From Oligoflexales bacterium (GTDB lineage Bacteria > Bdellovibrionota_B > Oligoflexia > Oligoflexales > JBIKVD01): a DNA stretch of 45,069 nt. The notes below the pieces were generated by a model. That model had not been told where the DNA came from and did not search any database. It saw nothing but the letters and a program-made list of their open reading frames with translations. The stretch spans positions 1-45,069 of the forward strand of contig JBIKVD010000002.1 of NCBI GenBank assembly GCA_044357055.1. The letters are read 5' to 3'. The position numbers and the translations under genes were made by a program. Below are positions 5,247-25,581 of the stretch, in pieces. Within the stretch, counting starts at the first letter, position 1, and every line of letters starts with the position of its first letter.

Positions 5247-5320
<74 letters not shown>

Positions 5321-5343
5321 CTCTTTTCGCGATGTTACAGGTT

Positions 5344-5391
5344 TGTTGGTTAGATTTTGAATCTTCGTGTTGGTTAGATTTCTAACCAACA
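5344..5391. repeat. TGTTGGTTAGA motif, two direct copies and one inverted; candidate integrase arm-type sites
   Basis: tgttggttagattt at 5344-5357 and 5368-5381; perfect palindrome TGTTGGTTAGA-TT-TCTAACCAACA at 5368-5391. Confidence 0.7.
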
Positions 5392-5404
5392 GTAAGTACC
5401 TGAA

Positions 5405-5734
5405 ATGAATGTTATAGATCCCCGCCTAAAATTAATCGCTAAATACCAAGCCAATAATCTCCGATTACTGTCAGAAATGATGAACAATGACTATTGGTCA
5501 AAAGCCAGGTTTTTGGAAGAAATTGACGAGCATTACAGGATGCTATTGAATAACTGGCCAAGGATGTCAAAGACTCGGAGGCTGGAGCAATGGCGGTTAG
5601 CGAAAAAATGGGCAAAGGAAGAGAACATTACCACCCCCAGACGGAATTCAGAATTGAACCGCCTTCCGGACGATCTAAGTCATTTAGGATTAGATTCAAC
5701 TCACCGGCTACCCAGGGCAAATGGGTACCAATAA
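5405..5734 (+). CDS. Hypothetical basic protein overlapping the 5' end of the integrase
   Basis: 109-aa ATG ORF between the att site and the integrase; overlaps it by ~130-145 nt; no recognised motif. Confidence 0.35.
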   Translation: MNVIDPRLKLIAKYQANNLRLLSEMMNNDYWSKARFLEEIDEHYRMLLNNWPRMSKTRRLEQWRLAKKWAKEENITTPRRNSELNRLPDDLSHLGLDSTHRLPRANGYQ

Positions 5735-6756
5735 ACCTACCTGAAATCGATATTGCCAATGACCATTTTAAGTCAGGTTTGGTTTCCAAAGAACACACAA
5801 AAGAGAAATTAAAATTAATCCTCCAAGGGCTCTACGCTGAACGCGATAAAGTTAAGAAAAAGCCCGAATTTCAATCCAAAAACATCGAACTCGTTAAGAA
5901 ACTTTGGGAAGAAAAGTATACCCGAAGACGCCTTAAAACCCTTAAAAGACCAAATGAATCATACAACGATTATATGAGAGCTGCGGAAGCAGTTGGCATG
6001 ATGCCACTAGACACCTGCAATCTTGAAGATCTAGAAGATCATTTACACGACACTCTTGGCGAAAAGCCAACCATTCTACGTCGGCGAATCATATGGATTA
6101 ACTCAATATTGATGTGGCTTGGGCGACCTAAAATTCCCCAATTGAAAAGGATGCCTCGTAAGTCGGTACGCTATCTTACTGAGGATGAGTTTTTCCAAGT
6201 TTACACTCATCTTAATGGCCATCCGTGGGATAGAACATTAGCTAAAATTGCATTTTATACCGGAATGCGAGTAGGAGAGATTTTTGGCCTTTATTCAAAA
6301 GACGTTCTCAAGAATCAGGCTTTGGTCGTTAATCAAATGAAAGCAAAAAGGGAAAATCATAAAGATGACACGACTAAAACTGACTCAGAACGCAGAGTCA
6401 TTATTCTTGACGAAGTAGCGGAAGATCTGAAGAACTGGGTGCAGGTTTCTAATGAAGAACGAGTAAAAATTAGGGATCGCCATTATGCAGATGTCATATC
6501 TAACGCCTGTCTGAAAGCTTTTCCCAAAGATGAGCAAAAACATCTCAATTTTCGCGATCTAAGGCACTGTTGTGCAATTTATATGTTACAAAACGGAATA
6601 CCGATCCATCTAGTGGCCCAACAACTCGGGAATGCTGTAGAAGTTACTGAACGATTTTACTCTGGCTTTATTTTGAAAGAAGAATCTATTGAGTTTATGC
6701 AAATGTTAATTTCAAAAGCCAAGGAAAAGAAAATATCCGAAGATTCTAATCGATAG
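5590..6756 (+). CDS. Tyrosine recombinase / integrase
   Basis: Box I TGMRVGEIFGL, catalytic Lys (TTKT), box II NFRDLRH...VAQQLGN...TERFY; adjacent to a tRNA. Confidence 0.92.
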   Translation: MAVSEKMGKGREHYHPQTEFRIEPPSGRSKSFRIRFNSPATQGKWVPINLPEIDIANDHFKSGLVSKEHTKEKLKLILQGLYAERDKVKKKPEFQSKNIELVKKLWEEKYTRRRLKTLKRPNESYNDYMRAAEAVGMMPLDTCNLEDLEDHLHDTLGEKPTILRRRIIWINSILMWLGRPKIPQLKRMPRKSVRYLTEDEFFQVYTHLNGHPWDRTLAKIAFYTGMRVGEIFGLYSKDVLKNQALVVNQMKAKRENHKDDTTKTDSERRVIILDEVAEDLKNWVQVSNEERVKIRDRHYADVISNACLKAFPKDEQKHLNFRDLRHCCAIYMLQNGIPIHLVAQQLGNAVEVTERFYSGFILKEESIEFMQMLISKAKEKKISEDSNR

Positions 6757-9442: not shown

Positions 9443-9473
9443 AAAATACCCTCGAAGAATGAGTCTTCGAGGG
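9443..9473 (-). terminator. Rho-independent terminator after the PAD gene
   Basis: CCCTCGAAGA-N5-TCTTCGAGGG (9449-9473) followed by TATTTTT on the minus strand, about 40 nt past the stop. Confidence 0.8.
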
Positions 9474-9512: not shown

Positions 9513-11168
9513 TCAATAAGTAAACGGCATATCCATCTCACGTACGACGTTGGTAGCGCAATGGACTTCGCCCAAGTTGAAATGATAGATGGCATCATCA
9601 ACAAAGTGAATCGTTTCCGGACTTCCAAGATGCGGACTCAATGTATTGGAGACCATCTCTCTGAGCCGGCTTACCCAAGGATCCGGAAAAATAACATGAT
9701 TTCTGAGCACTAACGCATTCGTCATGCCTGGCAAGTGAGCTGAATCTTTGCTCCACAAACCGAAATTTTTGACGCCATCAACATAAAAGTTTGGCAAAAA
9801 GGCCTGTGGTATCATTTCAACTTGTTTGCAAGTGGCGACATCCATGACTTTTTTAACAGATTCCTGCACCGAGCGCTCGGCGTATAGATTTCTGTAAATA
9901 TAGAATTTTGCAAAAGAGTCCGTTTTACGAATGACGCCCATAACTGTGTCAAAGGGTAGATATTCGACGTCCGATAAGCCGGTGATAGCTTTTGTAGCTT
10001 TAGTGAAGTCGTAATCATCCAAATTTGCAGACACACCAGGAGCAGCACCACCGTCTTTTCTGAAGTAATTGAGCGCAGTAATAAGGTCTGCCTTAGTCAG
10101 CAAAGTTTCGATCGCGATATTCTTTCCTGTTTTATCTCGGCCAATAGGAACCGTTGCTAGTTCCTCTGCGAACATCTGATATTCCGCGTTACTTGCTTCC
10201 TCTAAAATCACTTTCAAGGCCATTAGAGTGCTGCCCCAAACTAAGGTAGAGTCGCAAGCTTTGTTCGATGGAATATAAGTCATGTATTCATCGACGTGCC
10301 CAACCGCTAACCAATCACTCTCAATTTTAATTGCGTCTGGATTTCCTTTTTCCACGAAAATATCATAAAGAGGTGACGGAAGATTCGCGGCAGAATAGGT
10401 TGGATCATCAACTGAGTCTCCTATATAAACGATCCCGTTCGGAGTCACTTCGATGTTGCCACCGTATTGAGCCGAGTTTCCCGTATCCATCCCAAGCTTA
10501 ACAAGCGGAATGCCCAAAAGATCACGATAAACTTCGGGACTATATACATCACGATTTTCATTCCTAAAGGTGTCAACTACCAGATATACAGGATCTGCCA
10601 GACCAGTAATTTTTGCGGACGCAAATTCGCCGAAATCTTGAATCCATAAGTCCTCGCCATCAGGTTTATCCGTTTCCATCGGTGCCAGACTCAACTTTCC
10701 GTTGTAATTTGGGTCTTCAATGCTCAAAGTTGCGTCAATCGTTTTCACAAGCAAATCATAGTCGGCTCTCCGACCTTTATTAAACATAACAATAAGAGTG
10801 ATCTCCTGATTATATAGATCATCTCTCGTAATAGTTGGCTTTCCGATGGTTGGTTCGAGATTCTCGGAAACGTTGATTTCGTGAATCTCTTTATAAAGGT
10901 CGATCACAAAACGCCAATTGTTAAATGAATCAGTGCTTTTCCCAAAAAGATAAACATTGACTCCTTTTGGCACGTAAGTGTTTGGCAGTACGGTAATCTC
11001 TTCAACCAGCGTTTCATCGATTGTTTTATCCCAACCTGGCACCCCTATATTTGAATCGGGGCCAGGATTTAAGTCTTTGGTTTGGGAAGAAGAGTTAATT
11101 CCTCCACATCCTGAAAATGCCCCTACCAATAGCAATGTGGGCAGTAAAATACCTAGTTTAAAAATCAT
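9513..11168 (-). CDS. Protein-arginine deiminase (PAD) family lipoprotein
   Basis: PAD catalytic motifs WIQD, GGNIEVTP, WLAVGHVDE and GEVHCATN; lipobox FSGC; GGAGG ribosome-binding site before ATG 11168. Confidence 0.88.
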   Translation of the reverse strand: MIFKLGILLPTLLLVGAFSGCGGINSSSQTKDLNPGPDSNIGVPGWDKTIDETLVEEITVLPNTYVPKGVNVYLFGKSTDSFNNWRFVIDLYKEIHEINVSENLEPTIGKPTITRDDLYNQEITLIVMFNKGRRADYDLLVKTIDATLSIEDPNYNGKLSLAPMETDKPDGEDLWIQDFGEFASAKITGLADPVYLVVDTFRNENRDVYSPEVYRDLLGIPLVKLGMDTGNSAQYGGNIEVTPNGIVYIGDSVDDPTYSAANLPSPLYDIFVEKGNPDAIKIESDWLAVGHVDEYMTYIPSNKACDSTLVWGSTLMALKVILEEASNAEYQMFAEELATVPIGRDKTGKNIAIETLLTKADLITALNYFRKDGGAAPGVSANLDDYDFTKATKAITGLSDVEYLPFDTVMGVIRKTDSFAKFYIYRNLYAERSVQESVKKVMDVATCKQVEMIPQAFLPNFYVDGVKNFGLWSKDSAHLPGMTNALVLRNHVIFPDPWVSRLREMVSNTLSPHLGSPETIHFVDDAIYHFNLGEVHCATNVVREMDMPFTY

Positions 11169-11447
11169 ATTTACCTCCAAAATTCTTATTTCTGTTCGTT
11201 ACGTTATTACAAATACTCCTAAATTACAATTGCGATTGCCTCAATAAAAAGGAAGTAATCTTTCCTTTTGCTCAAGATTCTAAATTTTAAAAATTAGGAA
11301 AATTAATCGCGCCTGAGCACATCATCAATAACGATGCTCGACACGAAAATTAGAGGATTCGGAATGCCATAAATAAGCAAAGAGAATTGCAGTATGTACT
11401 GCGGCGGCATTTTTACAGGGGTATGCCAGGCATCAATCATCAGTATG

Positions 11448-12848
11448 TTATTTGACGTTAAAGTCAATTTTCATTGCTGGTGCATTGATGGGAGCTGTTT
11501 TAATGAGTCCAGTGTTGTCTTTTGCTTCTATATAAAAAGAAATACGTGCATTGCGAGGCAAATCAGTCATTTTATAACTATAGGTATTTCCGCCACTGTG
11601 CTCCATTTCAAGATTTGACTGTGGACTGCCATTTACCTCCCAAACAATACTGGGAGTCTCTGCTAAGTCTCGATCCAGGGCAGTAATCACTTCCACTTCA
11701 ATTTCGGCTTCCAGACTTGCAATATTGTCTAAATTGACATGCGGAAAGATAAAGGTTGTATCTTTGCGAAGCAAATTCCTTGCTCGACAGTGGACTGAAT
11801 CACCCCATGACGTGCCATCAGCATCGACCCCAACGATACGGTAGCCGGGCAATGAATTTTGATAAATTTGTTTTGCAGTATTATCGGATGAATCTCCGTA
11901 GAGTGGAAAATACAGGGTTTTGTTACTGATAAACGCATTAATATAGGCACGATAATCTTCCCCAAAGAAACCTTTTTTTACCATGGGCAAACGATAAATT
12001 TTATAAGGTGTCCCATATGGACTGATCAAAGATTTAATTTTCGCGACAAATGCTTCAGAATCTTGCCGATATTTAGAACCTGATGGAAATTCTCCTATGA
12101 CCCATGTGTCTGGCGCCACCAATTTGCCATAAGTATCAATGTGCTCAATCGAGATCCCAGGTCCCAGCTTTGAAGTCGTATAACGCTCAATGCCTAAATA
12201 ATCTAACATTCGGGCGTCAATTTCTTGTCTGGAAAGCTTTGAATTTTCAGAGTAAACAAGAGTTGATGAAAACGCGTTTGCTAACCCATCCGGATAGTAA
12301 TTACCGCCTGCGTGAACCAATCCTGTTTTAAAAAGTGGTACTTTCAATGACTCGGCAACGAATTCTGGGACTTTATCATCAAGGGGCCTTGGTCGATTGT
12401 AAATCGTGTCAACAACTCCAAATTGACCATTGCCGTCAAGAATAAACCATGGTCCATAGTCCCTGACCCAGATGCTATCAGTCGGAACGATACTGAAGGA
12501 AATATTGGCAGAAGGTATCTTGTTTTGATTCAACCAGTTTGACCACCAACTACGATCTGAGCTGCTATCGGCAAGGATAGTAACAGGACCATTACTTTGC
12601 AAAGCTCTGATAAACGACGGATTTGTCCATAAAGTAAAAACTGATTCTGCTTCTTCCCATTCACCTAAAGAATGGATCGGATATTGAGGCATAGGGCTGC
12701 CCGCTATGCGTTGCTCAGGTGAAGCAAACGCTTTTACCATTTCTTCCGGAGCGAGACCAATTGGTAGATTTTTTTGATCAGGCGTTACTGCTAGGGCAGC
12801 ACCCGCGAAGAAAAAAAGTGGAATGATCGAAAATAAATTTCTTGTCAT
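11448..12848 (-). CDS. Secreted agmatine deiminase / Porphyromonas-type peptidylarginine deiminase family protein with C-terminal beta-rich (Ig-like) domain
   Basis: GEWEE, DSIWVRDYGP, GGNY, HIDT, YIN, GDSVHC; signal peptide MTRNLFSIIPLFFFAGAALA; AGGAGG before ATG 12848. Confidence 0.88.
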   Translation of the reverse strand: MTRNLFSIIPLFFFAGAALAVTPDQKNLPIGLAPEEMVKAFASPEQRIAGSPMPQYPIHSLGEWEEAESVFTLWTNPSFIRALQSNGPVTILADSSSDRSWWSNWLNQNKIPSANISFSIVPTDSIWVRDYGPWFILDGNGQFGVVDTIYNRPRPLDDKVPEFVAESLKVPLFKTGLVHAGGNYYPDGLANAFSSTLVYSENSKLSRQEIDARMLDYLGIERYTTSKLGPGISIEHIDTYGKLVAPDTWVIGEFPSGSKYRQDSEAFVAKIKSLISPYGTPYKIYRLPMVKKGFFGEDYRAYINAFISNKTLYFPLYGDSSDNTAKQIYQNSLPGYRIVGVDADGTSWGDSVHCRARNLLRKDTTFIFPHVNLDNIASLEAEIEVEVITALDRDLAETPSIVWEVNGSPQSNLEMEHSGGNTYSYKMTDLPRNARISFYIEAKDNTGLIKTAPINAPAMKIDFNVK

Positions 12849-12980: not shown

Positions 12981-13589
12981 CTAAAAGGAAGCCTTAGAAG
13001 CCTCCTTAAATACTGACTTTGCTGAATTGAGGAAAAGAACGGCGATTCCGATTCCAACAATTAAATCTGGCCATTGTGATTTGAAAAAATAGACGAGGGC
13101 TGCTGCAATTAAGACGGCAGTGTTGGCTATGACATCATTTCGCGAGCAAGCCCAAACCGAACTGAAATTGATATCATCATTACGATGCCGCCAAAGCAGA
13201 CGAAGACAGATGACATTTGCTATCAGAACTATAAGGCCAACAATAGTCATAACATTCCACTCAGGCGTTTCGCCTAGATATGCTCTCACAAACGCTGTGG
13301 CCAGCACGGTCAATCCAGTTACTACCATTAAGATTGCCTTAAACTTAGAAACACGAATTTTGGCTGACATACTTGCTCTAAGTACATAAATGCTCGAGCC
13401 GTAAGCCAACGCATCACCCAACATATCGAGAGAATCCCCCATGAGGGCAACAGAATTAGCGAAAAAGCTTGCCCCAAGCTCAAACACAAACATTGCCAAA
13501 TTGATACTAAGTACAATCCATAAAACTTTGGAGTGAGCTTTAGCTAGTTGGTTAATCTGGGGGTTTTCTCCACAACAACTCTTCCCCAT
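12981..13589 (-). CDS. Short CDF-family cation transporter
   Basis: N-terminal CC, LMGDSLDMLGD, SRNDVIAN, WPDL; about 6 hydrophobic segments. Confidence 0.9.
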   Translation of the reverse strand: MGKSCCGENPQINQLAKAHSKVLWIVLSINLAMFVFELGASFFANSVALMGDSLDMLGDALAYGSSIYVLRASMSAKIRVSKFKAILMVVTGLTVLATAFVRAYLGETPEWNVMTIVGLIVLIANVICLRLLWRHRNDDINFSSVWACSRNDVIANTAVLIAAALVYFFKSQWPDLIVGIGIAVLFLNSAKSVFKEASKASF

Positions 13590-13642
13590 TTCTTACTTCC
13601 TCCGATCGAAAAAAATCGATTCAATAAATTTTTCATAACCCA

Positions 13643-15559
13643 TCAACGTTGCCAAGCAACTCTAAGACCGTTCAGGATGATGAGAACCTCACTGCCCTCG
13701 TGACCAATGACCGCTGAAAACATAGACATCGAATTGGAGAAAGTAGCTGCTACCAATATTGCAACAATGGCCAATGAAAGAAAGATGTTTTGCTTTATGA
13801 CTCGTCGAGTGGTTGCACCTAATTTTACTGAGTAAGCCAATCGTAAAAGGTCATTTTTAATTAGAGCCACATCTGCGATCGCCAATGCAGCGTCCGATCC
13901 GCCTGTCCCCATCGCGATTCCGACTGTGGCTGATGCTAAAGCAGGCGCGTCATTGATTCCATCCCCAACCATCGCGACTTCCCCGTATTTCTCCCTGAGA
14001 TTATTAACTTTCGTCACTTTATCCTCGGGAAGAAGTGCCGCATGAAATTCAGTGATTCCTATTAGATTGGAGATCGCTTTTGCTGATCCAACGTTATCTC
14101 CGGTCAACATGACTATGTGTTTAATACCAACTTTCTTGATACTCGATATCAAGGTTCGGGCTTCATCTCGAATTGTATCGGCCAGCGCAATTAAACCAAT
14201 GACTTCACTATTTCTACTAACTGAAATAACGGTATTGCCTTGAGCCTGAGCGTTTGCTTCCCAACTTTTCAGTTCATTGGAAGCTTTATGCAAAAATTGC
14301 TCTGCAGCCTTTGGCTTTATAACAAAGATAGTGTTACCACCGATTTCAGCCTTTGCTCCAACTGAAGTCAAAGCCAGGAAATTATTTACCTCGTAAAATT
14401 CTAATTTTTTGCTGTTTGCGTAGTTTACGACCGCTTTAGCAAGAGGATGTTCCGACAGAAATTCCACAGACGCAGCGAGGCGAATTAATTCGTCCTCAGA
14501 GATGTTCTGAGTATACACTGACACGACTGACGGTTTACCTATTGTCAAAGTTCCGGTTTTATCGATCGCGATTGCTTTTACTTTTCCCAGTCCCTCAAGA
14601 ATGATACCCCCTTTTATGAGGACGCCTCGCTTTGCCGCCCCACCAATTGCTGCAATCATCGTAACTGGAGTCGCTACGGCAAGTGCGCAGGGCGATGCAG
14701 CGACTAGAAATGTTATTGCTTTTCGGATCCAATCTTGTTTGGCGTCACCGCCAAATAAAAACGCAGCTATAGCAATTAGCAGAGCGATTATGAGAACAGC
14801 AGGAGAATAGACTTTGCCAAATCTTTCCACGAATTGCTGTGATTTTCCTTTTTGACTTTGTGCTTTCTCTACTAAATCAATGATCTTATTAACTGTGTTT
14901 TCCTTAAATTCTTTTGTTGTTTTGACAATTATCGAGCCATTGCCATTAAGGGTACCGGCAAATACTTCTTCGCCTGACGATTTGTCAACTGGTATGGACT
15001 CGCCTGTTACAGACGCCTCATTGATCGATGAATTACCTTCCTCGATTAATCCATCGACTGGTATTGATTCGCCAGGTCTGACCCGAATGATTTCGCCAAC
15101 TTGAATTTTTTCAACTTCCGTTTCGGTTTCACTACCGTTTTTAATTACCCTTGCCATTTGAGGCACCAATTTCATTAAATTGCGAACTGCGAAGCGAGTC
15201 TTTTGAATGGTATAGCCCTCTAGAGCCTCGCTTATTGAAAATAGGGCTGCAACTAGAGCGGCTTCTCGCCACTGACCCAACAGACATGCTCCTAATATGG
15301 CCGCGGTCATCAGAAAATCGATTCCAATTTCTTTATCCTTGAAAAGATGGTCGATTGCTTCTCTGGAAAAATAAAATGCTCCAGCGATAGTTGATAAAGC
15401 GAAAAATATATTTGAATACAAAGTTAGGTTGGAAGCCCCCAAAATAAACCCTAGTCCAATAAGCACCCACGACAGGCTAGAACTACGAACCTGAGGATTT
15501 TGCCATAACTCAGGCTTGTGTCCAGGCGGGTCCGTCTCGAAGGATTCGACACTTGTCAT
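13643..15559 (-). CDS. Heavy-metal P1B-type ATPase (SPC/HEG motifs, P1B-4-like)
   Basis: TGES, ASPCALAV, DKTGT, SEHPLA, GDGINDAP, HEGSE. Likely start ATG 15559. Confidence 0.95.
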   Translation of the reverse strand: MTSVESFETDPPGHKPELWQNPQVRSSSLSWVLIGLGFILGASNLTLYSNIFFALSTIAGAFYFSREAIDHLFKDKEIGIDFLMTAAILGACLLGQWREAALVAALFSISEALEGYTIQKTRFAVRNLMKLVPQMARVIKNGSETETEVEKIQVGEIIRVRPGESIPVDGLIEEGNSSINEASVTGESIPVDKSSGEEVFAGTLNGNGSIIVKTTKEFKENTVNKIIDLVEKAQSQKGKSQQFVERFGKVYSPAVLIIALLIAIAAFLFGGDAKQDWIRKAITFLVAASPCALAVATPVTMIAAIGGAAKRGVLIKGGIILEGLGKVKAIAIDKTGTLTIGKPSVVSVYTQNISEDELIRLAASVEFLSEHPLAKAVVNYANSKKLEFYEVNNFLALTSVGAKAEIGGNTIFVIKPKAAEQFLHKASNELKSWEANAQAQGNTVISVSRNSEVIGLIALADTIRDEARTLISSIKKVGIKHIVMLTGDNVGSAKAISNLIGITEFHAALLPEDKVTKVNNLREKYGEVAMVGDGINDAPALASATVGIAMGTGGSDAALAIADVALIKNDLLRLAYSVKLGATTRRVIKQNIFLSLAIVAILVAATFSNSMSMFSAVIGHEGSEVLIILNGLRVAWQR

Positions 15560-15575
15560 CTCGATTTCCCCTAGG

Positions 15576-15600
15576 AAAAAGCCCACCTTTCAGTGGGCTT
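15576..15600 (-). terminator. Intrinsic terminator-like hairpin between the RND gene and the ATPase
   Basis: AAGCCCAC-N6-GTGGGCTT running into a T-tract on the minus strand, just after the RND stop. Confidence 0.7.
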
Positions 15601-15608
15601 AATTTTAT

Positions 15609-18600
15609 TCAGTGACTCATTGCGTTTTCAGAAATATGCATCCGATTCTCTAAAATTCGATAAAGAGAAGGGAGGACAAAAAGTGTGAGAAATGTCGCAG
15701 AAATGATCCCTCCAACCACTACCGATGCAAGAGGCCTTTGAACTTCTGCTCCCGCACCAGTAGCCATCATCATAGGAAGAAATCCAAAGGCGGCGGCCGT
15801 GGCAGTCATGACTACAGGACGCAACCTGAGCAAGGTTCCTTTCATGATCAATTCCTGGCCAGTTAAGCCTTCAAGCTTCAGTTTGTTGAGATAACTGATA
15901 AGAACGATGCCATTCAAGACGGCAATACCTGAAAGAGCCACGAAGCCTATTGCTGCCGATATACTAAAATTTAGACCATTAAAAATAAGTCCAGCTACAC
16001 CGCCGACAAGTGCCATTGGTACGCACAAAAAGATAAGTACAGTTTGAGTAAAACTACGAAACGCTAGGTAAATCAGGATAAATACTGCTACCAATGCCAT
16101 TGGCACTACCAACATTAAACGTTCCTGTGCCGCTTCTAAGTTTTCGAAGGTTCCACCCCACTCAAGGTAGTAGCCGTCTGGAATTTTTAGATTCTTCTCG
16201 ATGGCTTGCCTTGCGTCCGCTACGAAACTTGCCACATCCCTTCCTCTGACGTTGATCAATACGGCCATACGCCTTTTTGCAGACTCGCGCCTAATATCAG
16301 AAAAGGTTTCTTGAATAGAAATGTTGGCGACCTTTTCGAGTGGAACAGTCAACATTTCAGCCGCCCCAACTGGCAGTGAATTAAGAATGCTAGGCTCAGC
16401 TCGCTCTGAGTCATTTAAACGGACAATAATTGGGAAATTTCTGGCCCCCTCATAGAGGGATCCCGCCGGCGTACCACCGATAGCAATTTCCACAGTTTCC
16501 AAGACGTTTTCTTTTGCTAGGCCAAGAGCATGTAACATTTCATACTTTGGTTCAATTCGCAGCACGGGCGAGGTACCCTTTGTTTCAGATTCAACGTCTC
16601 CCGCGCCTTTAAGGCCTTGAATAATTGTCGCCGCTTTCTTACCAAGATCAGAAAGCTGTTCCATGTCATCGCCATAGATTTTAAGCGCCACATCGGATCT
16701 AACCCCTTCAAGTAGCTCATTGAACCTAAGTTGAATTGGCTGTGAAAAAATCAGAGTTTGACCAGGTACCGACTCTTCTAGCTTTTGCTTTAAATTTTGC
16801 ACTAGTTCGGCTTTTGTCACATGTCGTCCATTGCTCTTGGGCCAAGTTTCCGTTGGTTTAAGTAAGATATAAGTATCTGATAAGTTCGGTCCCATTGGAT
16901 CGGTAGCGATTTCAGCCGTACCAATTCTCGAAATAACCCTTTCAACCTCTTCGAATTCGAGAATTGTTTTTTCAGATATTTCTTGAAGTGCTACAGATTG
17001 ATCTAGACTAATATTGGTAGGCCTAACAAATTGAATCGCAATCGAACCTTCGTCTAGCTGAGGAAGAAAGTCTGCCCCTAAATCTTTAAATAACCAAATG
17101 CCGAGAAAAATCGCCGCGAAACCAACAGCAACTATAATCCAACGAATTTTCAAAGCACCTTTAATCATTGGCCTGTAAATTGCTTCCAATAGCCTCATAA
17201 CAGGCGAGTTTTGACTTCCAGAATTTCCAGATAAAAACATTCCGGCAAGTGCCGGAACTGTGGTGAAAGAAAATATGAAAGACGACGCAAGAGCGAATGC
17301 AAAAGTAGCCGCCATAGGGACAAACATTTTTGCTTCAACACCTGTAAGAGCAAAGATAGGAAGGAATACAATTATTATGATTAGCTGTCCAAATCCTGCT
17401 GCGGACCTGATTTCCTGAGTAGCTTTAATAACCTCTTCTTGAATTTCTTGTCTATCCAAGGTCCGATTGAGTTCTGCTCTTTTAGAGGCTAGTTTCCGAA
17501 TACAATTGTCTAGAACAATAACAGCCCCATCGATAATAATTCCGAAATCAAGAGCACCAAGGCTCATCAAATTGCCAGAAACACCGAAATAGTTCATTAA
17601 GATGAAAGTTGTTAAGAGAGAAATTGGAATAACGAATGCAGTAATAAGAGCGGCCCGTAAGTTGCCCAGAATTAAAATTAATACTACGGCAACTAGACCA
17701 GCACCATAGGCAAGATTATGCCACACAGTATTCAGTGTTCGATCTACCAACTCTGAACGATCATAAAGTGTTTCTAATTCTATCCAGTCTGGGAGCGTCT
17801 TTTTGATATCAGTAATTTTTTCGTGAATGGCTTTCGAAATGGTACGACTATTTCCACCAAGAAGCATGAGAGCCGTGCCAACAACTGCTTCCTCGCCATT
17901 CACGACGGCTGCACCAGTGCGCATTTCTCTGTCTGGTTGAACAACCGCCAAGTCACCAACTGTTAGCGTTTCAAAGCCAGGCAATCTCCTAACGACTACA
18001 TTTTTGATATCATCCGGCGACTTGATGAGACCTGCTACTTGAACAAGAAGTTGTTCAGCGGTTTGTTGAATATAGCCACCACCTGTATTTCGATTGTTAT
18101 GCTTTAATGCTTCAACAATCTCATCGAGATGGATGCCATATTGAGCCATTTTCTTAAGGTTTGGCTGTACATGGTACTGCTTCTCGTAGCCACCAATCGC
18201 GTTGACTTCTGCAACACCCGGGACAGTTAGAAGCCTCGGTTTTAGAGACCACTCATTGAACGCTCTTAGTTCCATGAGTTGAAGAAGCCGCTCCGCACCT
18301 TCAGCCTTTTCCTTTGCTTCTAGTGAATAAAAGTAAACTTCACCTAGGCCCGTTGTGATCGGGCCCAGCTCTGGGGAAATGCCTTCGGGCAGGGACTCTC
18401 TAATACCCTGGAGTCTTTCCGCTACCAGTTGCCTGGCCCTGAAGAGATCTGAGCCTTCATGAAAAACGATTGTGACTTGGGAAAGTCCAAACCTTGAAAT
18501 CGAACGGACGTCTTCCACCGAGGGTAAGCCCCCTAAAGCGCTCTCAATTGGGAAGGTAATAAACCGTTCGATTTCCTCCGGAATCATGCCTGAAACTTGT

Positions 18601-18755
18601 GTATTTACCTGCACTTGCACGTTTGTGATGTCGGGAACGGCATCGATTGGAAGAGATTTCAACGAGTACCAACCGAAGACTGCCGCTACCAAGGTCAACA
18701 AAATGAACATGCCTTTTTGCCGAACGCTTAGCTCTATCAAGCGATTAATGGACAT
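15609..18755 (-). CDS. czcA: CusA/CzcA-family heavy-metal efflux RND transporter
   Basis: LPIDAVPDITNVQVQ, GNLMSLGALDFGIIIDGAV, RLRPVVMTA, GAEVQRPLA; ~1050 aa. Likely start ATG 18755. Confidence 0.93.
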   Translation of the reverse strand: MSINRLIELSVRQKGMFILLTLVAAVFGWYSLKSLPIDAVPDITNVQVQVNTQVSGMIPEEIERFITFPIESALGGLPSVEDVRSISRFGLSQVTIVFHEGSDLFRARQLVAERLQGIRESLPEGISPELGPITTGLGEVYFYSLEAKEKAEGAERLLQLMELRAFNEWSLKPRLLTVPGVAEVNAIGGYEKQYHVQPNLKKMAQYGIHLDEIVEALKHNNRNTGGGYIQQTAEQLLVQVAGLIKSPDDIKNVVVRRLPGFETLTVGDLAVVQPDREMRTGAAVVNGEEAVVGTALMLLGGNSRTISKAIHEKITDIKKTLPDWIELETLYDRSELVDRTLNTVWHNLAYGAGLVAVVLILILGNLRAALITAFVIPISLLTTFILMNYFGVSGNLMSLGALDFGIIIDGAVIVLDNCIRKLASKRAELNRTLDRQEIQEEVIKATQEIRSAAGFGQLIIIIVFLPIFALTGVEAKMFVPMAATFAFALASSFIFSFTTVPALAGMFLSGNSGSQNSPVMRLLEAIYRPMIKGALKIRWIIVAVGFAAIFLGIWLFKDLGADFLPQLDEGSIAIQFVRPTNISLDQSVALQEISEKTILEFEEVERVISRIGTAEIATDPMGPNLSDTYILLKPTETWPKSNGRHVTKAELVQNLKQKLEESVPGQTLIFSQPIQLRFNELLEGVRSDVALKIYGDDMEQLSDLGKKAATIIQGLKGAGDVESETKGTSPVLRIEPKYEMLHALGLAKENVLETVEIAIGGTPAGSLYEGARNFPIIVRLNDSERAEPSILNSLPVGAAEMLTVPLEKVANISIQETFSDIRRESAKRRMAVLINVRGRDVASFVADARQAIEKNLKIPDGYYLEWGGTFENLEAAQERLMLVVPMALVAVFILIYLAFRSFTQTVLIFLCVPMALVGGVAGLIFNGLNFSISAAIGFVALSGIAVLNGIVLISYLNKLKLEGLTGQELIMKGTLLRLRPVVMTATAAAFGFLPMMMATGAGAEVQRPLASVVVGGIISATFLTLFVLPSLYRILENRMHISENAMSH

Positions 18756-19539
18756 GGCCTTCTCCTCCCTGTCCTGAAGCTTGGAGGTGAGCAACACGAA
18801 GAAGCCCCACGCCTTGCGTTACTACAAATTCACTAGGACCAGCATCGTCGAGTTCAATAGAAACTTGCTTCTCAGATTTCACTATTTTTTTTGTTTCTAA
18901 GAGTTGATAGGCTTTGCCACGTTTCACATAGACTCCATATTCATCTCGGAAGGTGACCAACGCGGACTTTGGAATGACGAACTTCTTTCCTTGAGCCTTA
19001 ATTTCAGTGGTTATAATTTTCAGTAGTTTCTCTGCTTTTTCGTTGAGCTCAAATCGCTCGCCGTCGTGTTCTACCCGTGTAATCGCCTTATCTTTCCCAA
19101 ACGCAGAGGCTCCGTGATCATCGTGACCACCCCCTTCATGTTCGTCGTGGCCTTCCCCTTTATGATCGCTATGACCTTCTTCTTCATGACCTTCATGATC
19201 TGAATGGCCACCTTTTTCTTCAGCACCGTGCTCTGTATGTTCTACTTTCTCGCCATCCTTATGCTCGGCGTGATCTTTGTGATCATCGTCGTGATCTTCA
19301 TGCTCATCATTTTTTTTAACCTTTGGCTCGTCGGGATGCTCAGTTTTCGTCGCGGAGGCTTGTTCGCTTATTTTTTGTTTTGGGTTGGGTGCTGACTTCT
19401 TTTCCACATCTTTATGCGCCTCTTCATTGTGGTCATGATCATGATCATGATCATGTTGCTCCTGACCAAAAGCGGATCCAGCTGGCAAATAGAGGGTAAA
19501 GAATAAAATCAATGGAAATTTGCAAATATATGGTTTCAC
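18745..19539 (-). CDS. Exported His-rich protein in the CzcB (periplasmic adaptor) position
   Basis: Signal peptide, ~120-aa His/Asp/Glu-rich tract, C-terminal adaptor-like segment (VIPKSALV...GVYV...VVTQG); lies between tolC and czcA. Confidence 0.75.
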   Translation of the reverse strand: MKPYICKFPLILFFTLYLPAGSAFGQEQHDHDHDHDHNEEAHKDVEKKSAPNPKQKISEQASATKTEHPDEPKVKKNDEHEDHDDDHKDHAEHKDGEKVEHTEHGAEEKGGHSDHEGHEEEGHSDHKGEGHDEHEGGGHDDHGASAFGKDKAITRVEHDGERFELNEKAEKLLKIITTEIKAQGKKFVIPKSALVTFRDEYGVYVKRGKAYQLLETKKIVKSEKQVSIELDDAGPSEFVVTQGVGLLRVAHLQASGQGGEGHVH

Positions 19540-20762
19540 TGTGAAGGTCCTTTTTTAGGTAAAAAATCGCCGCTGATTATGGAAATTAGCCATTTTGAAT
19601 TCAAAGCGATTAGTTCGAGTTCTTGTTTTCGTTCAAGGCTTTCAATAAGCTGACGGTGAGCCTCGATAATAGTTTGTGGCCTAAACAGTCCAGTTTTTGA
19701 TTTTTTATCGATAATATCGTGCAATTTTTTTGCTTCGTTGCCGCTTTCAAGCTCATTTAGGCGAACAATTGCGTTTCTATATTTTTCTTTGAGCAACTCT
19801 AAATTCGAAAGCTCGAAGTCCTTTTGACGTTGCCAGCGAAGTTGCGCTGCCTCCGTTTCTCGTCTCGCGACCAGAATTGCGCCTTCATTCCGATGATAAA
19901 TGGGAAGATCTACTGAAACTCCGACCCCGATGCCAGCGTTCCACTCGTTGTCTTCCCTTTCAATTTCGACGATAGGACCAATTCCAATGTCGGAATTCGC
20001 CATGGCTTCTTCTAGACCTAGTCTGCTTTGTGCTTCAGCAATACGCACTCGATTCGTCACGGATTGTGTGGATTCTTTTAATTCCGGCTCGCTACTTAGC
20101 TTCCAAAGATCAGATTTTGGAAGCCACAGCTTTTCGTCTTCGGGGAGAGGTTGCCCCAGCGCTCGCTTAAGCCAGGTTAGATGCTCCATTTTCTGGGAAT
20201 TTGCGACTGATTCCCGAGATCGCATTTCCTGCTTGGCAACTTTCAATATGTCTCGTTCGACTTCCACGTCCGGCGGGAGAAACTGTTGAGCGTTGTACTT
20301 TCTCAGACCGTGGTCGTAAATCTCTAGGATTTCATGAATTAGCTCGAAGGTTTCGTCAAGTTGACGCAGCGCATAAAGATGATCTAAAGTTTCAAGGGCA
20401 ATTGCCTCTTGCTCGTTTCTTATCTTCGAGCGGGAAACTTCAATTTCCGCTTTTGCCAAGTTGACCCTAGCGTCTAATTTTCCACCTCGCTCAAGTATGT
20501 GCATGTAGGAGGTGCCAAGCAGGATATCTCCCTGGGTTTTAGCCGAAACTTCGGAGCTAAGGTTTGGGTTTGGTCGCTGTGAAGCTCTATCTACGCCGGC
20601 TTCGGCAATAGCCAATTCAGAATTCAAATCGAGCACATTAGGATGATTTGATATCACGCAAAGCACGACATCATCCGTCGATTGAATTGGGCAATCTTTT
20701 GCTTGTCCCAAAGCAACCGCCGAGATCATCCCAATGCAAAGCAATACGCATCGCATGGGCAC
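19536..20762 (-). CDS. TolC-family outer membrane efflux protein (CzcC-like)
   Basis: Signal peptide, RPNPNL, ERGGKLDAR, VSVDLPIYHRNEGAI. Confidence 0.88.
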   Translation of the reverse strand: MPMRCVLLCIGMISAVALGQAKDCPIQSTDDVVLCVISNHPNVLDLNSELAIAEAGVDRASQRPNPNLSSEVSAKTQGDILLGTSYMHILERGGKLDARVNLAKAEIEVSRSKIRNEQEAIALETLDHLYALRQLDETFELIHEILEIYDHGLRKYNAQQFLPPDVEVERDILKVAKQEMRSRESVANSQKMEHLTWLKRALGQPLPEDEKLWLPKSDLWKLSSEPELKESTQSVTNRVRIAEAQSRLGLEEAMANSDIGIGPIVEIEREDNEWNAGIGVGVSVDLPIYHRNEGAILVARRETEAAQLRWQRQKDFELSNLELLKEKYRNAIVRLNELESGNEAKKLHDIIDKKSKTGLFRPQTIIEAHRQLIESLERKQELELIALNSKWLISIISGDFLPKKGPSQ

Positions 20763-21387: not shown

Positions 21388-23997
21388 TTATTTTTTGAAA
21401 TAAATGTCTTTGCCTTCTGTCAATGATTTCAAGTTTTGCTTCAGTGCAAATTGCAACCGATCAAGTGCTTTATAGGGACTGTAGTTGAGAGCATAATCTT
21501 TCGATGTATCCTTCATATGGGACACTGAGACTTCCTTAGCGACGTTCTCAAGTAGCATCGATCTCGCGCGCTTTTCATATTCACCCTTTGGCAGCTTATT
21601 AAGCTCTGCCTGCTGTTTCTCCGATAAATCTGGAAAATTGACCGAATTGATAAAGATTTCGTTATCGGCTCGCCCCCTCGACAATGAGACATAAAATCTT
21701 TCCCGGTCCATCAAGTTTCCGTCCACTACCACAAAAGCTTTATCAACCGTCATACTCTGAGACTTATTAGACGTGACGGCATAGCCGTATTTGAAGCCGG
21801 AAAAGGACGCTGGATTAAATTTAATGAGAGTCCCGTCATCCTTCTTAACTGAGATGAAAATAGAATTTACATCGACGACTTCGACAATATCTGAATTGAT
21901 GATACCCTTTGCTTTTCTATTTTCGGTGAAAATTAATCTGTCACCCCTTGCTACCTCAAACTCTGCCCTACCCCTTTTAAAAAAGTAACTTTTACCAAGT
22001 GCACCTTCAGCTTTGAGGTGAGACCGAATTTTCTCATTTAGTCTTCCCACGACGAGATTTGTTGTTGCCAGGATGAGGCTTGTTTTTTGCGGATTTGAGC
22101 TCCTAAACTCCTTCCATCTCTTAAGGATGCTTGCTTCAGCTTCATTTTGGTCTGTTTCGACGTGGAGATAGCCCTTTTTTTCGTAAAATTGGAAAGTTTC
22201 ATCGACCTTCCCTTCCCTGATTCCAAGAATGGTCTTTGCTTCTTCAGGGTCGGACTGACGCCTGACCGTTGAAAGTTCTGATCCATCAAATTTATTCTGG
22301 AGGGTACCAAACATTTGCCCTGCCTCGACAGGTTGAACTTGTTTTGTATCCCCGATAAGCAGCACTTTACAGCCCATTTTTTCGGCCTTGCGAAAGATTC
22401 TGTTGTAATACTTCGAGGCAAGCATCGCAGCCTCATCGACTACGAGAATTTGTTTTCGATTTTGTACACTATTCTTATAAAGAAAGGAGTGAACTGTGGT
22501 GGCATTTATCTTCACATCCCGCTCAATTGTCTGTGCAGCTTTGTGGGTGGGAGCGAGTGCTGTAAGCTTGTGTCCGGTCTGCTCATATATCTTTTCAAGA
22601 TATTGTAGTGCAAATGTTTTTCCACTACCAGCCACCCCTGAGATAAGCGAAATCCCGTCGGTATTTGTGGCCGTCGCAACCACAGTTTGGAGTTGATCTG
22701 GTGAAAGCTTCACCTCTTTACCTAGTAGCTTTGAATGTCGCTCGTTTTCCTCTTTAATAATCTTTTGCACCACATGAAGTTTTATACTGTGGCGATTTTC
22801 ACCGATTCGCCGTTTAAACATCCGGACAGTTTCATCCTCCTCCTGATACTTCCATTTTGTTGTTAGCACGTTATCATCATAGGTTTTTTGAAGGCGTATG
22901 AGATCACTCATCATGCCATGAAAGCTTGATTGAAAAATGTCTCCCGTTGACAGTTTTCCAATCGATCTTTCCGCCATTTTTCTCAGATAGACATAGGCTG
23001 GAAATGTCGATCTTTGGTCTATAATTTCACGCCCTGTGGCCTTGATAAGGTTTTTTCTGAATCGTTTTGATTGCCCTTTGTAGATGAACGTGGAACTGCG
23101 CATGCCTTCAATTTTAGCACTGCTTAGGCCCATTTCCTTGTGTTCCCGGCGCCAAGTTTCGAAATCGACTCGGCTATCTTTGTCGTATTTATTTCTTGTT
23201 ATGAAATTGTATTTTTGCTTAGCAAAGATTGATGCAGAAGATCTGTCGAGGCCTGATTGCTCGGCGAGTTTTTCAATTTCTTTGGACCGGGTTGAGCGAA
23301 AATCGATTAACTTTTGAGACACACCCTTAATTTCAAAACTGTGTTTTGTACGTCTCAGTTCAAATCCGGCGGTCTTAAGCCGGTGCGCAAGTTCTGCTTT
23401 ATAGAGAGCCCCCGCTGCCATTTTTCGTTTATAGTAGTGCGAATATTGCAGAGTTCGAAACTTGCTATCCTCGCAATATGCTACGTTAAACATGATGGCA
23501 TGGGTATGGAGTTGAGGATCACCGGCTCTTGAGGAAGAGTGCTGGAAAAGCGCAAAAATATTCTCAGCCTTCACCTTGATTTTGCCGCCTTTACCAGCTC
23601 TTGAGTGCCCGGATTGATGTTCCAGGTAATCAAGTGCTACCTTTGCCGCCTCGTTATGCGCATTTTCTACTATTTCCTTTGTTTTCTCATTTGCCGTTGC
23701 CCAGACAATCGAAACACTTTTGGGGGCCGAAAATGTGAAATCTACGCCCATTGCATGCTCTTCGCCTGCGTTTTGGACAAGCGCAGTCCCGCTTGGACTA
23801 AAGCCTTGCGCAAGGCGTTCCATAGCAAGCGGCATAACTGTAGCACCATTCAAAGAGCTGCCTGGAAGGCTTGGATCTGATAGCGCATGTGCTCCTCCAC
23901 CGTACCAAACGCCAGGCTTTTCTCCGCCTTCAATGCAGTATTCGGTATAATACTTTACGGCTTCTTTTGAATGCGCCAGTGGCTGAGCAGTAATCAA
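21388..23997 (-). CDS. MOBF relaxase-helicase (TrwC/TraI-like)
   Basis: N-terminal YY, DFTFSAPKSVS, HSSSRAGDPQLHTH; helicase motifs GVAGSGKT, VVDEAAM, YGYAVT..KSQSMT, YVSLSR. Confidence 0.95.
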   Translation of the reverse strand: MITAQPLAHSKEAVKYYTEYCIEGGEKPGVWYGGGAHALSDPSLPGSSLNGATVMPLAMERLAQGFSPSGTALVQNAGEEHAMGVDFTFSAPKSVSIVWATANEKTKEIVENAHNEAAKVALDYLEHQSGHSRAGKGGKIKVKAENIFALFQHSSSRAGDPQLHTHAIMFNVAYCEDSKFRTLQYSHYYKRKMAAGALYKAELAHRLKTAGFELRRTKHSFEIKGVSQKLIDFRSTRSKEIEKLAEQSGLDRSSASIFAKQKYNFITRNKYDKDSRVDFETWRREHKEMGLSSAKIEGMRSSTFIYKGQSKRFRKNLIKATGREIIDQRSTFPAYVYLRKMAERSIGKLSTGDIFQSSFHGMMSDLIRLQKTYDDNVLTTKWKYQEEDETVRMFKRRIGENRHSIKLHVVQKIIKEENERHSKLLGKEVKLSPDQLQTVVATATNTDGISLISGVAGSGKTFALQYLEKIYEQTGHKLTALAPTHKAAQTIERDVKINATTVHSFLYKNSVQNRKQILVVDEAAMLASKYYNRIFRKAEKMGCKVLLIGDTKQVQPVEAGQMFGTLQNKFDGSELSTVRRQSDPEEAKTILGIREGKVDETFQFYEKKGYLHVETDQNEAEASILKRWKEFRSSNPQKTSLILATTNLVVGRLNEKIRSHLKAEGALGKSYFFKRGRAEFEVARGDRLIFTENRKAKGIINSDIVEVVDVNSIFISVKKDDGTLIKFNPASFSGFKYGYAVTSNKSQSMTVDKAFVVVDGNLMDRERFYVSLSRGRADNEIFINSVNFPDLSEKQQAELNKLPKGEYEKRARSMLLENVAKEVSVSHMKDTSKDYALNYSPYKALDRLQFALKQNLKSLTEGKDIYFKK

Positions 23998-25550
23998 ATT
24001 TTGTCCTCAAGGCGAGTTGCTACCCACTTCAGCGCACTTTCAAAGCGCTCCTTTTGCTCTGGTTTTGCGGGACCTTTTCCTAGGTCAGGAACCCCATGCT
24101 GGTCTCTATGTAGAGGAAGGACTTGCGCCCACCTTCTGTGACGAATGCGAAGCTTTACCGGCATGAATGATAGGCTTGAAAGATAAAACCACCCGTCTCG
24201 CAAAGTTTGAATTTCAAATGGCATGACGACTGGCTTTGTTGCCACTGTTTCAGAATAGGAACCACTCGCTCCACTCCTCCCGGAGCTGCGGTTTTTCCTT
24301 AGGACTTCCGAGGACCCGAGCAGTTCAGACATTTCATTTGCATGCTTCGGTTCCTTAATTCTGAAGATGAATTTTGTGCCGATTTGGCCAAGCATCGCCG
24401 AAGCCTCATCGTGGCCATAAAGCTTTCTAAAATAGCTTTCCGATTGGTATGCGAGAATACAGCGCGCCGAGTATTTACGAAGCCGATCCAGAGATTTTCC
24501 AAGATTTTCGATCTTTCCGATCGTCGACACTTCATCGATGATAATGTTAATTTTTGTGTGCTTTTTCGAAGGATTTCTCGCAAAACAGCCAATGATTGCT
24601 AGGTTAAACCAGATCTTAAGAAGTGGTGACATGACGCCAAAGTCATCATCCTTTACCGGAATGAAAATCCAATTTTTGTCATCATTTTGTGTCCAGTCGT
24701 AAATACTAAACGCCGCCTCGTCTCCACGAGCCTTGGCCCAATAGTTCAAATCCTTAAGGAAGCTCAGTTCCATCAGTGCATGCGCAATAATACCTGCAGA
24801 TTGCGGAGTTTTTTTATCTCCGGTGATCGACTTTGCTGTCTCACTTAGGGAATCGAAAATGCTTCCGGCACCCCCTTGAACTAGATCTCTTAGTTCATCT
24901 AGTGAACTGCAGGAATCAATCAGCTGTCTTAGAACAATTCGTGCGCCATTCCACCAAAATTTGTCATGCTCATGGCCTGAGGGCACAAGAAATTCTGCAA
25001 TCTGGGCACTCGAAATTCGCTCTCCGCCCTGTCCCTCCTGATAAGGGTCCCAAAGCCTTGAGCGTTTGTCATAGAGACTTAAAATGTGATCACTTTCGCG
25101 ACCGAGTTCTGAGCAAATTTCGCCACCGACATCAAGAACAATGCACTTTTCTCCCGCAAGTCTTGCCCTTTCCAATAGGGCCTTAATTTGTGTCGATTTG
25201 CCAGCACCTGTGGCGCCAATGAAGGCGACATGGCGATCAAGCACATATTCCCAAATCGAGACTTTTGACTTTCCTCCTGAACATTCAAACGGGACTCCTT
25301 TCATCGCTTTAAGACTCAGTGGCTTGCCCAAATCTTCTTCAATTTCTTTCCGGTATGCGTCGGATTCAGCTTCAATTGCTTTTTGAAACCTTCTAGCCTC
25401 GACAAGCTTTGAACCTCGCAGAAACAGATCCGTATTTTTAGGCTTTTTGTTGTCACGGCTGGCAAGTAACGTGTAGGTCCCGTAGATAAAAATTGCGCAA
25501 ATACATGGCAAAAGAAGGCCGTATGGCCCTACATAATCTAGTAGTGACAT
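23994..25550 (-). CDS. Type IV coupling protein (TrwB/TraD-like)
   Basis: N-terminal transmembrane segment, Walker A GATGAGKS, IIIDEV, RKY...LAYQS; overlaps the relaxase start. Confidence 0.92.
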   Translation of the reverse strand: MSLLDYVGPYGLLLPCICAIFIYGTYTLLASRDNKKPKNTDLFLRGSKLVEARRFQKAIEAESDAYRKEIEEDLGKPLSLKAMKGVPFECSGGKSKVSIWEYVLDRHVAFIGATGAGKSTQIKALLERARLAGEKCIVLDVGGEICSELGRESDHILSLYDKRSRLWDPYQEGQGGERISSAQIAEFLVPSGHEHDKFWWNGARIVLRQLIDSCSSLDELRDLVQGGAGSIFDSLSETAKSITGDKKTPQSAGIIAHALMELSFLKDLNYWAKARGDEAAFSIYDWTQNDDKNWIFIPVKDDDFGVMSPLLKIWFNLAIIGCFARNPSKKHTKINIIIDEVSTIGKIENLGKSLDRLRKYSARCILAYQSESYFRKLYGHDEASAMLGQIGTKFIFRIKEPKHANEMSELLGSSEVLRKNRSSGRSGASGSYSETVATKPVVMPFEIQTLRDGWFYLSSLSFMPVKLRIRHRRWAQVLPLHRDQHGVPDLGKGPAKPEQKERFESALKWVATRLEDKI

Positions 25551-25581
25551 GAGTTATTCCATTAATAATTATGGGTATTTT

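Follow-up and report, generated by a model that had tools for sequence, protein, structure and literature searches.

Two predicted exported peptidylarginine deiminase-type proteins are neighbouring cargo of an integrative and conjugative element in a predatory-type lake-water bacterium

The window analyzed here, an entire contig of 45,069 bp (C475), belongs to a 4.37-Mb Oligoflexia/Bdellovibrionota-type metagenome-assembled genome from lake water (505 contigs, 83% complete; a predatory-type bacterium). It carries two neighbouring deiminase genes of different families, one related to the Porphyromonas gingivalis enzyme PPAD (hereafter PPAD-type) and one related to the human peptidylarginine deiminases (PADs; hereafter PAD-type), and both genes are cargo of an integrative and conjugative element (ICE) inserted at a tRNA-Met gene (Table 1). 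As the original prediction had it, the two genes are co-oriented: the PPAD-type open reading frame (ORF) extends over 11448-12911 and the PAD-type ORF over 9513-11180, both on the minus strand, encoding 487 and 555 residues, respectively, when read from TTG. The true starts are likely ATG codons at 12848, with AGGAGG upstream, and at 11168, with GGAGG 6-7 nt upstream; the resulting 466-residue and 551-residue proteins have the lengths of independent gene calls for the same proteins (P0001 and P0140, respectively), both of which are encoded on one 329-kb contig. Residue numbers below refer to these ATG-initiated forms. The terminator predicted after the pair is present as a strong hairpin that starts ~40 nt past the PAD-type stop codon. 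A scan of positions 7000-13700 (E <= 1) revealed no Rfam family or riboswitch, the sole match being a chance-level hit to NRON (14.7 bits versus 50) outside the pair, and a simple promoter scan found none in either minus-strand spacer, with a total below the shuffle mean. No RNA dataset is listed among those containing the DNA of the pair.

The PPAD-type protein matches the Pfam family PF04371 (PAD_porph) with an E-value of 2.7e-30 and 106.2 bits against a cut-off of 25. When all PDB sequences were searched, the best matches were the P. gingivalis PPAD structures (E 2.4e-63), aligned over both domains from query residue 75 to 475 (487-residue frame) versus chain residues 8 to 408; the next non-PPAD chain scored 4.4e-23, and the proven agmatine deiminase 2JER scored 7.4e-15. 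An AlphaFold model built from 22 sequences (predicted local distance difference test, pLDDT, 86.2) superposes with Foldseek on PPAD (6i0x_A) with an E-value of 4.9e-42, TMt of 0.87 and a root mean square deviation (RMSD) of 3.0-3.1 Å, at 29-30% identity over ~430 columns. The TMq is 0.79 to PPAD and at most 0.58 to agmatine deiminases, which cover the catalytic domain only. The additional C-terminal beta domain noticed earlier is all-beta in the model (residues ~360-466) and aligns with the Ig-like domain of PPAD; a CBM_56 assignment for it was discarded as sub-threshold (21.5 bits versus a cut-off of 27). With both domains matched and the carboxylate-binding arginines kept (see below), this gene is nearer to PPAD than the original prediction claimed.

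The motifs WVRD, HID and VHC are all found in the translation, and the catalytic residues D130, H236, D238, N297 and C351 of PPAD correspond to D130, H236, D238, N304 and C354, each invariant in 22 relatives. PPAD residues W127, R152, R154 and G182 are also retained, under the same numbers, and the NRPRP stretch can be aligned position by position. Of the two arginines, R154 never varies and R152 shows at least 90% conservation; every mapped residue is either invariant or conserved to at least 90% in the 22 relatives. The residue roles, i.e., catalytic set and substrate binding, are those given in sections of PMC4487231 and PMC4893104; according to the former, R152 and R154 of PPAD hold the carboxylate at the substrate's C-terminus and the preceding peptide carbonyl. 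The N-terminus displays a basic n-region, a hydrophobic core and a Sec-type ALA/VT cleavage motif. A hydrophobic N-terminus is present in 100 of 110 M-starting family members, and relatives align from the ATG start and have the same mature N-terminus. A type IX secretion tail was not found, there being no Pfam match to PF18962, and the protein ends after the Ig-like domain. It thus looks like a full-length PPAD homologue that, judged by its residues, is catalytically intact and exported.

The PAD-type protein matches PF03068 (E 5.2e-25; 88.7 bits versus a cut-off of 25), confirming that the two genes belong to two families, and its best PDB sequence matches are human PAD4, PAD2, PAD1 and PAD3, with E-values of ~1e-11 (PAD4, 9.7e-12). 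A model from 93 sequences reached a pLDDT of 92.7 and a predicted TM-score (pTM) of 0.90; Foldseek matches it to the human PADs (PAD1, E 6.3e-20), and a VIA alignment to PAD4 gave a Z-score of 31.9 and an RMSD of 2.7 Å over 333 residues with 27% identity. The predicted motifs WIQD, GHVDE and GEVHC are all in the translation. PAD4 residues W347, D350, R372, H471, D473, N588 and C645 correspond to W175, D178, R202, H291, D293, N484 and C537, a mapping that combines the PPAD/PAD4 equivalences listed in part of PMC4487231 with our sequence alignment, the chain offset being deduced from the motifs. Apart from R202, which is invariant in the nine close homologues, these residues are conserved to at least 90% in the 93 relatives. 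Ala288 occupies the position of PAD4 S468, and its small side chain would leave room for internal arginines. Equivalents of Q349, E353, D369 and N373, which we take to be among the Ca1/Ca2 ligands of PAD4, are present, and the position of E351, which we assume to be a further ligand, is Phe.

Neither PAD_N nor PAD_M was detected by Pfam in the PAD-type protein (PF08526 and PF08527 unmatched at E <= 0.01). Residues 45-170 are alpha/beta in the model, and some VIA rows extend to PAD4 residues ~154-256, yet just 284-339 residues align. In the ESM Atlas, the structure rows for residues 26-170 have TM-scores of at most 0.53 and come from mixed families, including one PF04371 cluster, with no usable feature match. 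In other bacterial PADIs, according to a section of PMC8826395, a divergent PAD_M was detected by profile-profile search only. At the N-terminus, a hydrophobic core runs into a lipobox-like FSGC, of which the Cys (Cys21) is invariant in nine of nine close homologues, and second-tier relatives likewise have a Cys after a hydrophobic core, which points to a clade of PAD_C lipoproteins. By this signal the PAD-type protein, too, is predicted to be exported, as had been proposed for both gene products.

The window proceeds from dnaG and rpoD to tRNA-Met, a tyrosine integrase, a minus-strand cargo block and transfer genes that reach the contig end. The cargo block comprises, in order, a methyltransferase, a 319-residue protein without family, the PAD-type and PPAD-type genes, a CDF transporter, a P1B ATPase, an RND pump and an outer-membrane factor. 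The ICE location put forward originally is thus borne out by tRNA-Met, integrase, relaxase, coupling protein, type IV secretion genes and a 53-nt exact repeat. This repeat, consisting of the last 47 nt of the tRNA and 6 further nt, recurs at C327:57-109, and a contig from an independent lake-water run fuses the C327 flank to position 5275, which fits the two copies being attL and attR, with the C327 copy likely attR. The right end of the ICE falls outside the window. The island has a GC content of 43.7% against 48.6% for the genome, and GC at third codon positions is 0.35-0.41 in both deiminase genes, compared with 0.50 in rpoD and dnaG and 0.47-0.55 in the chromosomal paralogues. Six lake-water runs, one of them possibly the source, contain at least half of the sampled words of the pair. 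In four lake-water runs, every one of the 30 bins of the 16.2-kb cargo is covered and the pieces listed are identical; the run contigs are short, and none of those listed spans the spacer with 31 nt on either side, so that linkage of the pair in these runs means continuous identical cover, not a bridging record. Among 72,556 plasmid records, there was no PAD-type match, and PPAD-type matches were only AguA-like, with less than 60% identity and none covering 80% of the query.

Table 1. Features of the deiminase locus and of related loci. Positions are those of the 45,069-bp window unless a locus handle (L) precedes them.
Feature	Position	Strand	Basis
PPAD-type deiminase, 466 aa: signal peptide aa 1-20, pentein catalytic domain ~54-360, Ig-like domain ~361-466	11448..12848	-	ORF, PF04371, model
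PAD_C lipoprotein (predicted), 551 aa: signal and lipobox Cys21, alpha/beta region ~45-170, PF03068 catalytic domain	9513..11168	-	ORF, PF03068, model
Sec-type signal peptide of PPAD-type protein, predicted cleavage after ALA	12789..12848	-	translation, relatives
Lipoprotein signal peptide and lipobox Cys of PAD-type protein (predicted)	11106..11168	-	translation, homologue Cys
A+T-rich spacer between the deiminase genes	11169..11447	-	weak hairpin 11402-11389 within
Intrinsic-terminator-like hairpin 3' of PAD-type gene	9449..9473	-	10 pairs, 6 G-C, then T-run
ICE left end: tRNA-Met 5247-5321, 53-nt att repeat 5275-5327, tyrosine integrase 5590-6756	5247..6756	+	
Metal-efflux cargo directly upstream of the pair: CDF transporter, P1B-type Zn/Cd/Pb ATPase, RND pump, outer-membrane factor	12981..20762	-	
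ICE transfer genes: TrwC relaxase, TrwB-type coupling protein, VirB11-, TrbI- and VirB4-like type IV secretion	21388..44649		
DDAH-like genes	L134:1689-2618, L142:11391-12299, L144:11348-12184, L145:11368-12240, L146:11283-12242, L147:11396-12304, L149:5125-6000, L160:10665-11570		
M14 carboxypeptidase genes	L150:2816-3754, L152:9100-9981		

Some further features of the window and genome were recorded. The 319-residue ORF at 8257-9216 (-), directly downstream of the pair beyond the terminator, has neither a Pfam or NCBIfam match nor a signal peptide. AbiEii, MerB-like and MerR genes also lie within the transfer region: an AbiEii-type toxin gene whose partner ORF lies upstream, a 315-residue protein with a MerB-like C-terminus beside MerR, and a DUF5677 protein (26685-28011, 29349-30980 and 34011-34982, minus strand). 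The rpoD gene at 2693-5161 (+) encodes an unusually long sigma-70 of 822 residues, in which region 1.1 begins only at residue 246, implying a long N-terminal extension. A further island site may lie elsewhere in the genome, at C265:19909-20167, where two partial repeats of the 3' end, of 25 and 19 nt, come after a second tRNA-Met-like copy.

From the folds, residues and export signals, we lean with modest confidence towards the reading that the two genes encode independent, exported deiminases, carried as ICE cargo, that would act on peptidyl-arginine. Several observations weigh against it. Sections of PMC4487231 describe how Y233 in the Michaelis loop of PPAD closes on the substrate carboxylate and sterically excludes internal arginines; the window protein has Ser at this position, where the family consensus has Thr. 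It also has Thr in place of the channel gatekeeper C239 of PPAD, and in PPAD itself the C239A and C239S variants retain ~8% activity, according to the same source. Loop 228-234, which contains position 233, is the sole internal low-confidence stretch of the PPAD-type model (pLDDT < 50). In the PAD-type protein, R374 of PAD4, a residue that binds the substrate backbone, aligns with Glu204; an invariant Arg sits two residues after it. The export signals were judged by eye and by a hydrophobicity rule, with no dedicated predictor. Moreover, the unique same-strand adjacency of the genes and their shared island composition would be compatible with functional coupling. The originally proposed division of labour, with the PAD-type enzyme attacking internal and the PPAD-type enzyme C-terminal arginines, is also less certain as a clean endo/exo split, given the Ser in place of Y233.

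The gene neighbourhoods of PPAD-type relatives supply one more point against action on peptidyl-arginine and one in its favour. These relatives are numerous: of 7,999 candidates scored, 1,160 reach E <= 0.001, one of them 72% identical (P0002, on a 2.7-kb contig) and the rest at most 56%; the few names that the sources supply, "agmatine deiminase family protein", belong to Bdellovibrionota-type genomes, and at least 561 stretches occur in species-representative genomes. In a FastTree phylogeny of 80 rows, the window protein falls in a fully supported clade of 22 rows from Bdellovibrionota-labelled and vaguely "proteobacterial" genomes, which is sister to a Planctomycetota clade and apart from Ignavibacteriota, Bacteroidota and Fermentibacterota clades. 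At eight of 20 loci of this Bdellovibrionota-type clade, a DDAH-like pentein gene (PF19420, 278-319 residues) lies directly downstream of the PPAD-like gene on the same strand, overlapping it or 0-85 nt away; of the remaining 12 loci, three have a contig end within ~350 nt. The DDAH-like partners score below the cut-offs of the NCBI dimethylargininase and arginine-dihydrolase models and are without signal peptides. This PPAD-like and DDAH/arginine-dihydrolase-like pair looks like a conserved two-gene operon, and the partner would suit a role in nitrogen or small-molecule metabolism better than one in modifying proteins. Two of the 20 loci, both belonging to one subclade, have directly upstream a gene for an exported M14 zinc carboxypeptidase that abuts or overlaps the PPAD-like gene, a link that would fit C-terminal peptide chemistry for the PPAD-type family. 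The nearest relatives of the window protein (L140 and L141) have neither partner, and PF19420 was not found in the 83%-complete host genome.

The DDAH-like and M14 links suggest activity at peptide C-termini and arginine-nitrogen catabolism, and they are the main reason why we keep a metabolic explanation in play, in which one or both enzymes act on small guanidino compounds in the periplasm (free arginine, agmatine, or arginine-ended di- and tripeptides), the ammonia is taken up, and the enzymes have no part in modifying proteins. PF04371 is mainly an agmatine deiminase family, the partner in the apparent operons of relatives is a cytoplasmic arginine-dihydrolase/dimethylargininase-like enzyme, and parts of PMC4487231 indicate a lower but real selectivity issue with free arginine in PPAD. 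A peptide-feeding predator would also be well served by several exported pentein enzymes: the host has two more PAD_C genes and two more PF04371 genes (C75:9777-11426, C232:4678-6135, C152:6799-7992 and C2:7970-9550), and lipobox-like or hydrophobic N-termini on all of them would make six exported pentein enzymes in a 4.4-Mb genome. However, the PPAD-type protein scores far under the cut-offs of the AguA equivalogs (59.2 bits versus 381.8 for TIGR03380; 66.1 bits versus 483 for NF010070), and it keeps R152 and R154 together with the Ig-like domain that metabolic AguA lacks. The absence of aguB noted earlier also holds, since none of the Pfam matches of the 40 window ORFs scanned is a carbon-nitrogen hydrolase, and the best match to the AguB model TIGR03381 in the 83%-complete genome reaches 55 bits against a cut-off of 410. 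The PAD_C family, for its part, is known for peptidyl substrates (sections of PMC8826395). We therefore judge scavenging of small guanidino compounds to be rather improbable, and we continue with the reading of two independent deiminases acting on peptidyl-arginine.

Whether the two enzymes belong together was assessed from the recurrence of the pair. Few proteins belong to the PAD-type clade: of 8,000 candidates scored, 17 reach E <= 0.001, nine of them full-length at 33% identity or more, and among 1.84 billion representatives 626 reach E <= 0.001 and just 16 reach E <= 1e-30. In one related genome a PAD-type gene (41% identical; L025:2219-3529, G033:C141) adjoins one for a member of PF16683 (transglutaminase-elicitor family), likewise an enzyme that modifies proteins. 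We collected 103 PAD-family loci (80 from metagenomes and 23 from genomes; flanks of up to 10 kb either side, 1.11 Mb in total, 46 loci of at least 10 kb) and the best 80 of the 561 PPAD-like loci (1.24 Mb; 61 of at least 10 kb). A PPAD-like (PF04371) neighbour was found at none of the 103 PAD-family loci with the PPAD-like profile at E <= 1e-5, nor at E <= 0.01, and a PAD-family neighbour was found at none of the 80 PPAD-like loci, where the lone weak match (E 6.3e-4, L188) was the PPAD-like ORF itself. In control searches, the PAD profile recovered its own gene at 103 of 103 loci, and the PPAD-like profile detected the window gene at 9e-218 and the divergent PF04371 paralogues of the host at 3.6e-16 and 1.9e-5. 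A single-sequence PAD-type query of the genome contigs yielded 49 pattern matches, none of which was confirmed, and the search was redone with an alignment.

At genome level, close relatives of the PAD-type protein occur in four of 131 species genomes of the phylum (E <= 1e-10) and those of the PPAD-type protein in seven (E <= 1e-30); the window's own genome (G000) is the only one with both. PF03068 as a family is present in 18 of the 131 genomes and PF04371 in 76. Thirteen of the 18 PF03068 genomes (72%) contain PF04371, compared with 58% overall, and the kin are not independent; there is no clear enrichment of co-occurrence at Pfam-family level. In 10 of the 12 other both-family genomes, the listed places lie on different contigs or, in G073, at least 590 kb apart; the PF04371 places of G052 and G117 are absent from the listed places. 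The genome with prefix CAYMLA01 has both kinds on different contigs, and in the host itself the other PAD genes, on C75 (56% identical to the ICE copy) and C232, have no PF04371 neighbour. The co-occurrence of homologues that had been put forward as a check is seen for the two families within genomes, and no second case of adjacency was seen among the listed places.

These counts give no support to the original prediction of a functional module, i.e., a mobile extracellular citrullination system that joins the work of an endo-acting PAD with that of an exo-acting PPAD-type enzyme, for example to neutralize arginine-rich cationic peptides or to modify proteins of prey or competitors. In its favour, both proteins appear exported and catalytically intact, the genes are adjacent and co-oriented with one strong terminator after them and share the low GC of the island, and the arrangement is stable in the four further lake-water runs. 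The tendency of PPAD-like genes to adjoin a second pentein enzyme also gives such guanidino-enzyme pairing a precedent, but that recurrent partner is apparently cytoplasmic and not an exported PAD. Within the pair, the gap from the PPAD-type stop to the longest PAD-type frame amounts to 267 nt, with a weak 5-bp hairpin directly after the stop codon, and the tyrosine that would enforce exo-specificity is absent from the PPAD-type protein. Taken together, we hold a dedicated module to be unlikely; the side-by-side position more likely arises because ICE cargo accumulates.

At the other extreme, the two genes could be hitch-hiking cargo without current function, inactive or unexpressed. The uniqueness of the arrangement and the distance between the ICE copy and its chromosomal PAD paralogue would agree with this, but full-length ORFs with good ribosome-binding sites, retention of every catalytic residue, confident folds and identical contig pieces in four more runs make it very improbable. 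On the reading that we prefer, that of two independent deiminases, both proteins would be exported, cysteine-dependent guanidino hydrolases of the pentein fold, encoded by separate cargo genes of the ICE. The PPAD-type enzyme, predicted to be soluble, would most likely convert arginine at or near the C-termini of peptides into citrulline and ammonia, in the periplasm or outside the cell. The PAD-type enzyme, presumably anchored to the membrane, would most likely citrullinate arginine within peptides or proteins at the cell envelope. The analysis shows that the genes are intact, which families and folds they belong to, that the catalytic residues and sequence-level signals for export are present, that the setting is an ICE and that the adjacency is not conserved; activity, substrates, location and any benefit to the host are inferred.

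A comparison with known systems shows what sets the two proteins apart. With P. gingivalis PPAD (4YT9, 4YTB, 4YTG, 5AK7 and 6I0X), the PPAD-type protein has in common the two-domain build, the catalytic residues, R152 and R154, and export. However, it carries a Sec signal only and is without the type IX C-terminal domain, whereas Bacteroidales relatives (P0113-P0119) carry PF18962; it has Ser for Y233 and Thr for C239; and its host is an environmental Bdellovibrionota-type bacterium rather than an oral member of the Bacteroidota. With AguA (TIGR03380, NF010070; 2JER), it shares PF04371, the pentein fold and the Cys/His/Asp chemistry, but it is predicted to be exported rather than cytoplasmic, has the extra Ig-like domain, and has no aguB in the window. 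The PAD-type protein shares PAD_C, similarity to PAD4 (the Z-score given above) and catalytic equivalents with human PAD1-4 and the bacterial PADIs (Cummings et al. 2021, PMC8826395), yet differs in being a predicted lipoprotein, in lacking a Pfam match to PAD_N or PAD_M, and in having Glu aligned with R374; nowhere does the main text of PMC8826395 use the term "signal peptide". The element itself resembles tRNA-integrated heavy-metal ICEs in its tRNA-Met integrase, att repeat, TrwC, coupling protein, type IV secretion and Czc-like RND pump as well as in its P1B ATPase, CDF transporter and MerR plus MerB-like cargo, and differs from them by adding two protein-arginine deiminase genes.

As to the literature, passages of PMC11756583 still call PPAD a unique prokaryotic citrullinating enzyme, known solely from P. 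gingivalis and, since 2018, P. gulae and P. loveana, and according to part of PMC6367333 the natural role of PPAD-type enzymes is open even for P. gingivalis. In the literature searched, we found nothing on PAD or PPAD enzymes of Bdellovibrio-type bacteria, and the PADI species list of PMC8826395 may include PAD-type relatives. Nor did that literature hold anything combining "peptidylarginine deiminase" with "integrative and conjugative element", in agreement with the original remark that no description of such a pairing on an ICE was known to its author. What is new here, as judged from the sequences, is a PPAD-type enzyme without type IX tail or Tyr gate outside the Bacteroidota, and a PAD_C protein in the form of a putative lipoprotein.

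A more far-reaching scenario, which we consider doubtful, is that the ICE spreads a membrane-anchored, endo-acting PAD together with a soluble PPAD-type enzyme whose open Michaelis loop, with Ser for Tyr233, gives it a wider reach, the two acting on competitors, prey or phages by removing the positive charge of their arginine-rich peptides or proteins. If true, this would be a transferable protein-modification trait of defence or attack, alongside metal resistance. The wider distribution of PPAD homologues may matter more than the pair itself: full-length homologues form a large, unstudied family in Bdellovibrionota-type bacteria, Planctomycetota, Ignavibacteriota, Bacteroidota and other environmental bacteria, and their links to M14 carboxypeptidases and arginine-dihydrolase-like enzymes are testable clues to the role of PPAD-type enzymes in nature. 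If these enzymes are active, extracellular protein citrullination would count among the ordinary traits of bacteria and, in the present case, among the transferable ones.

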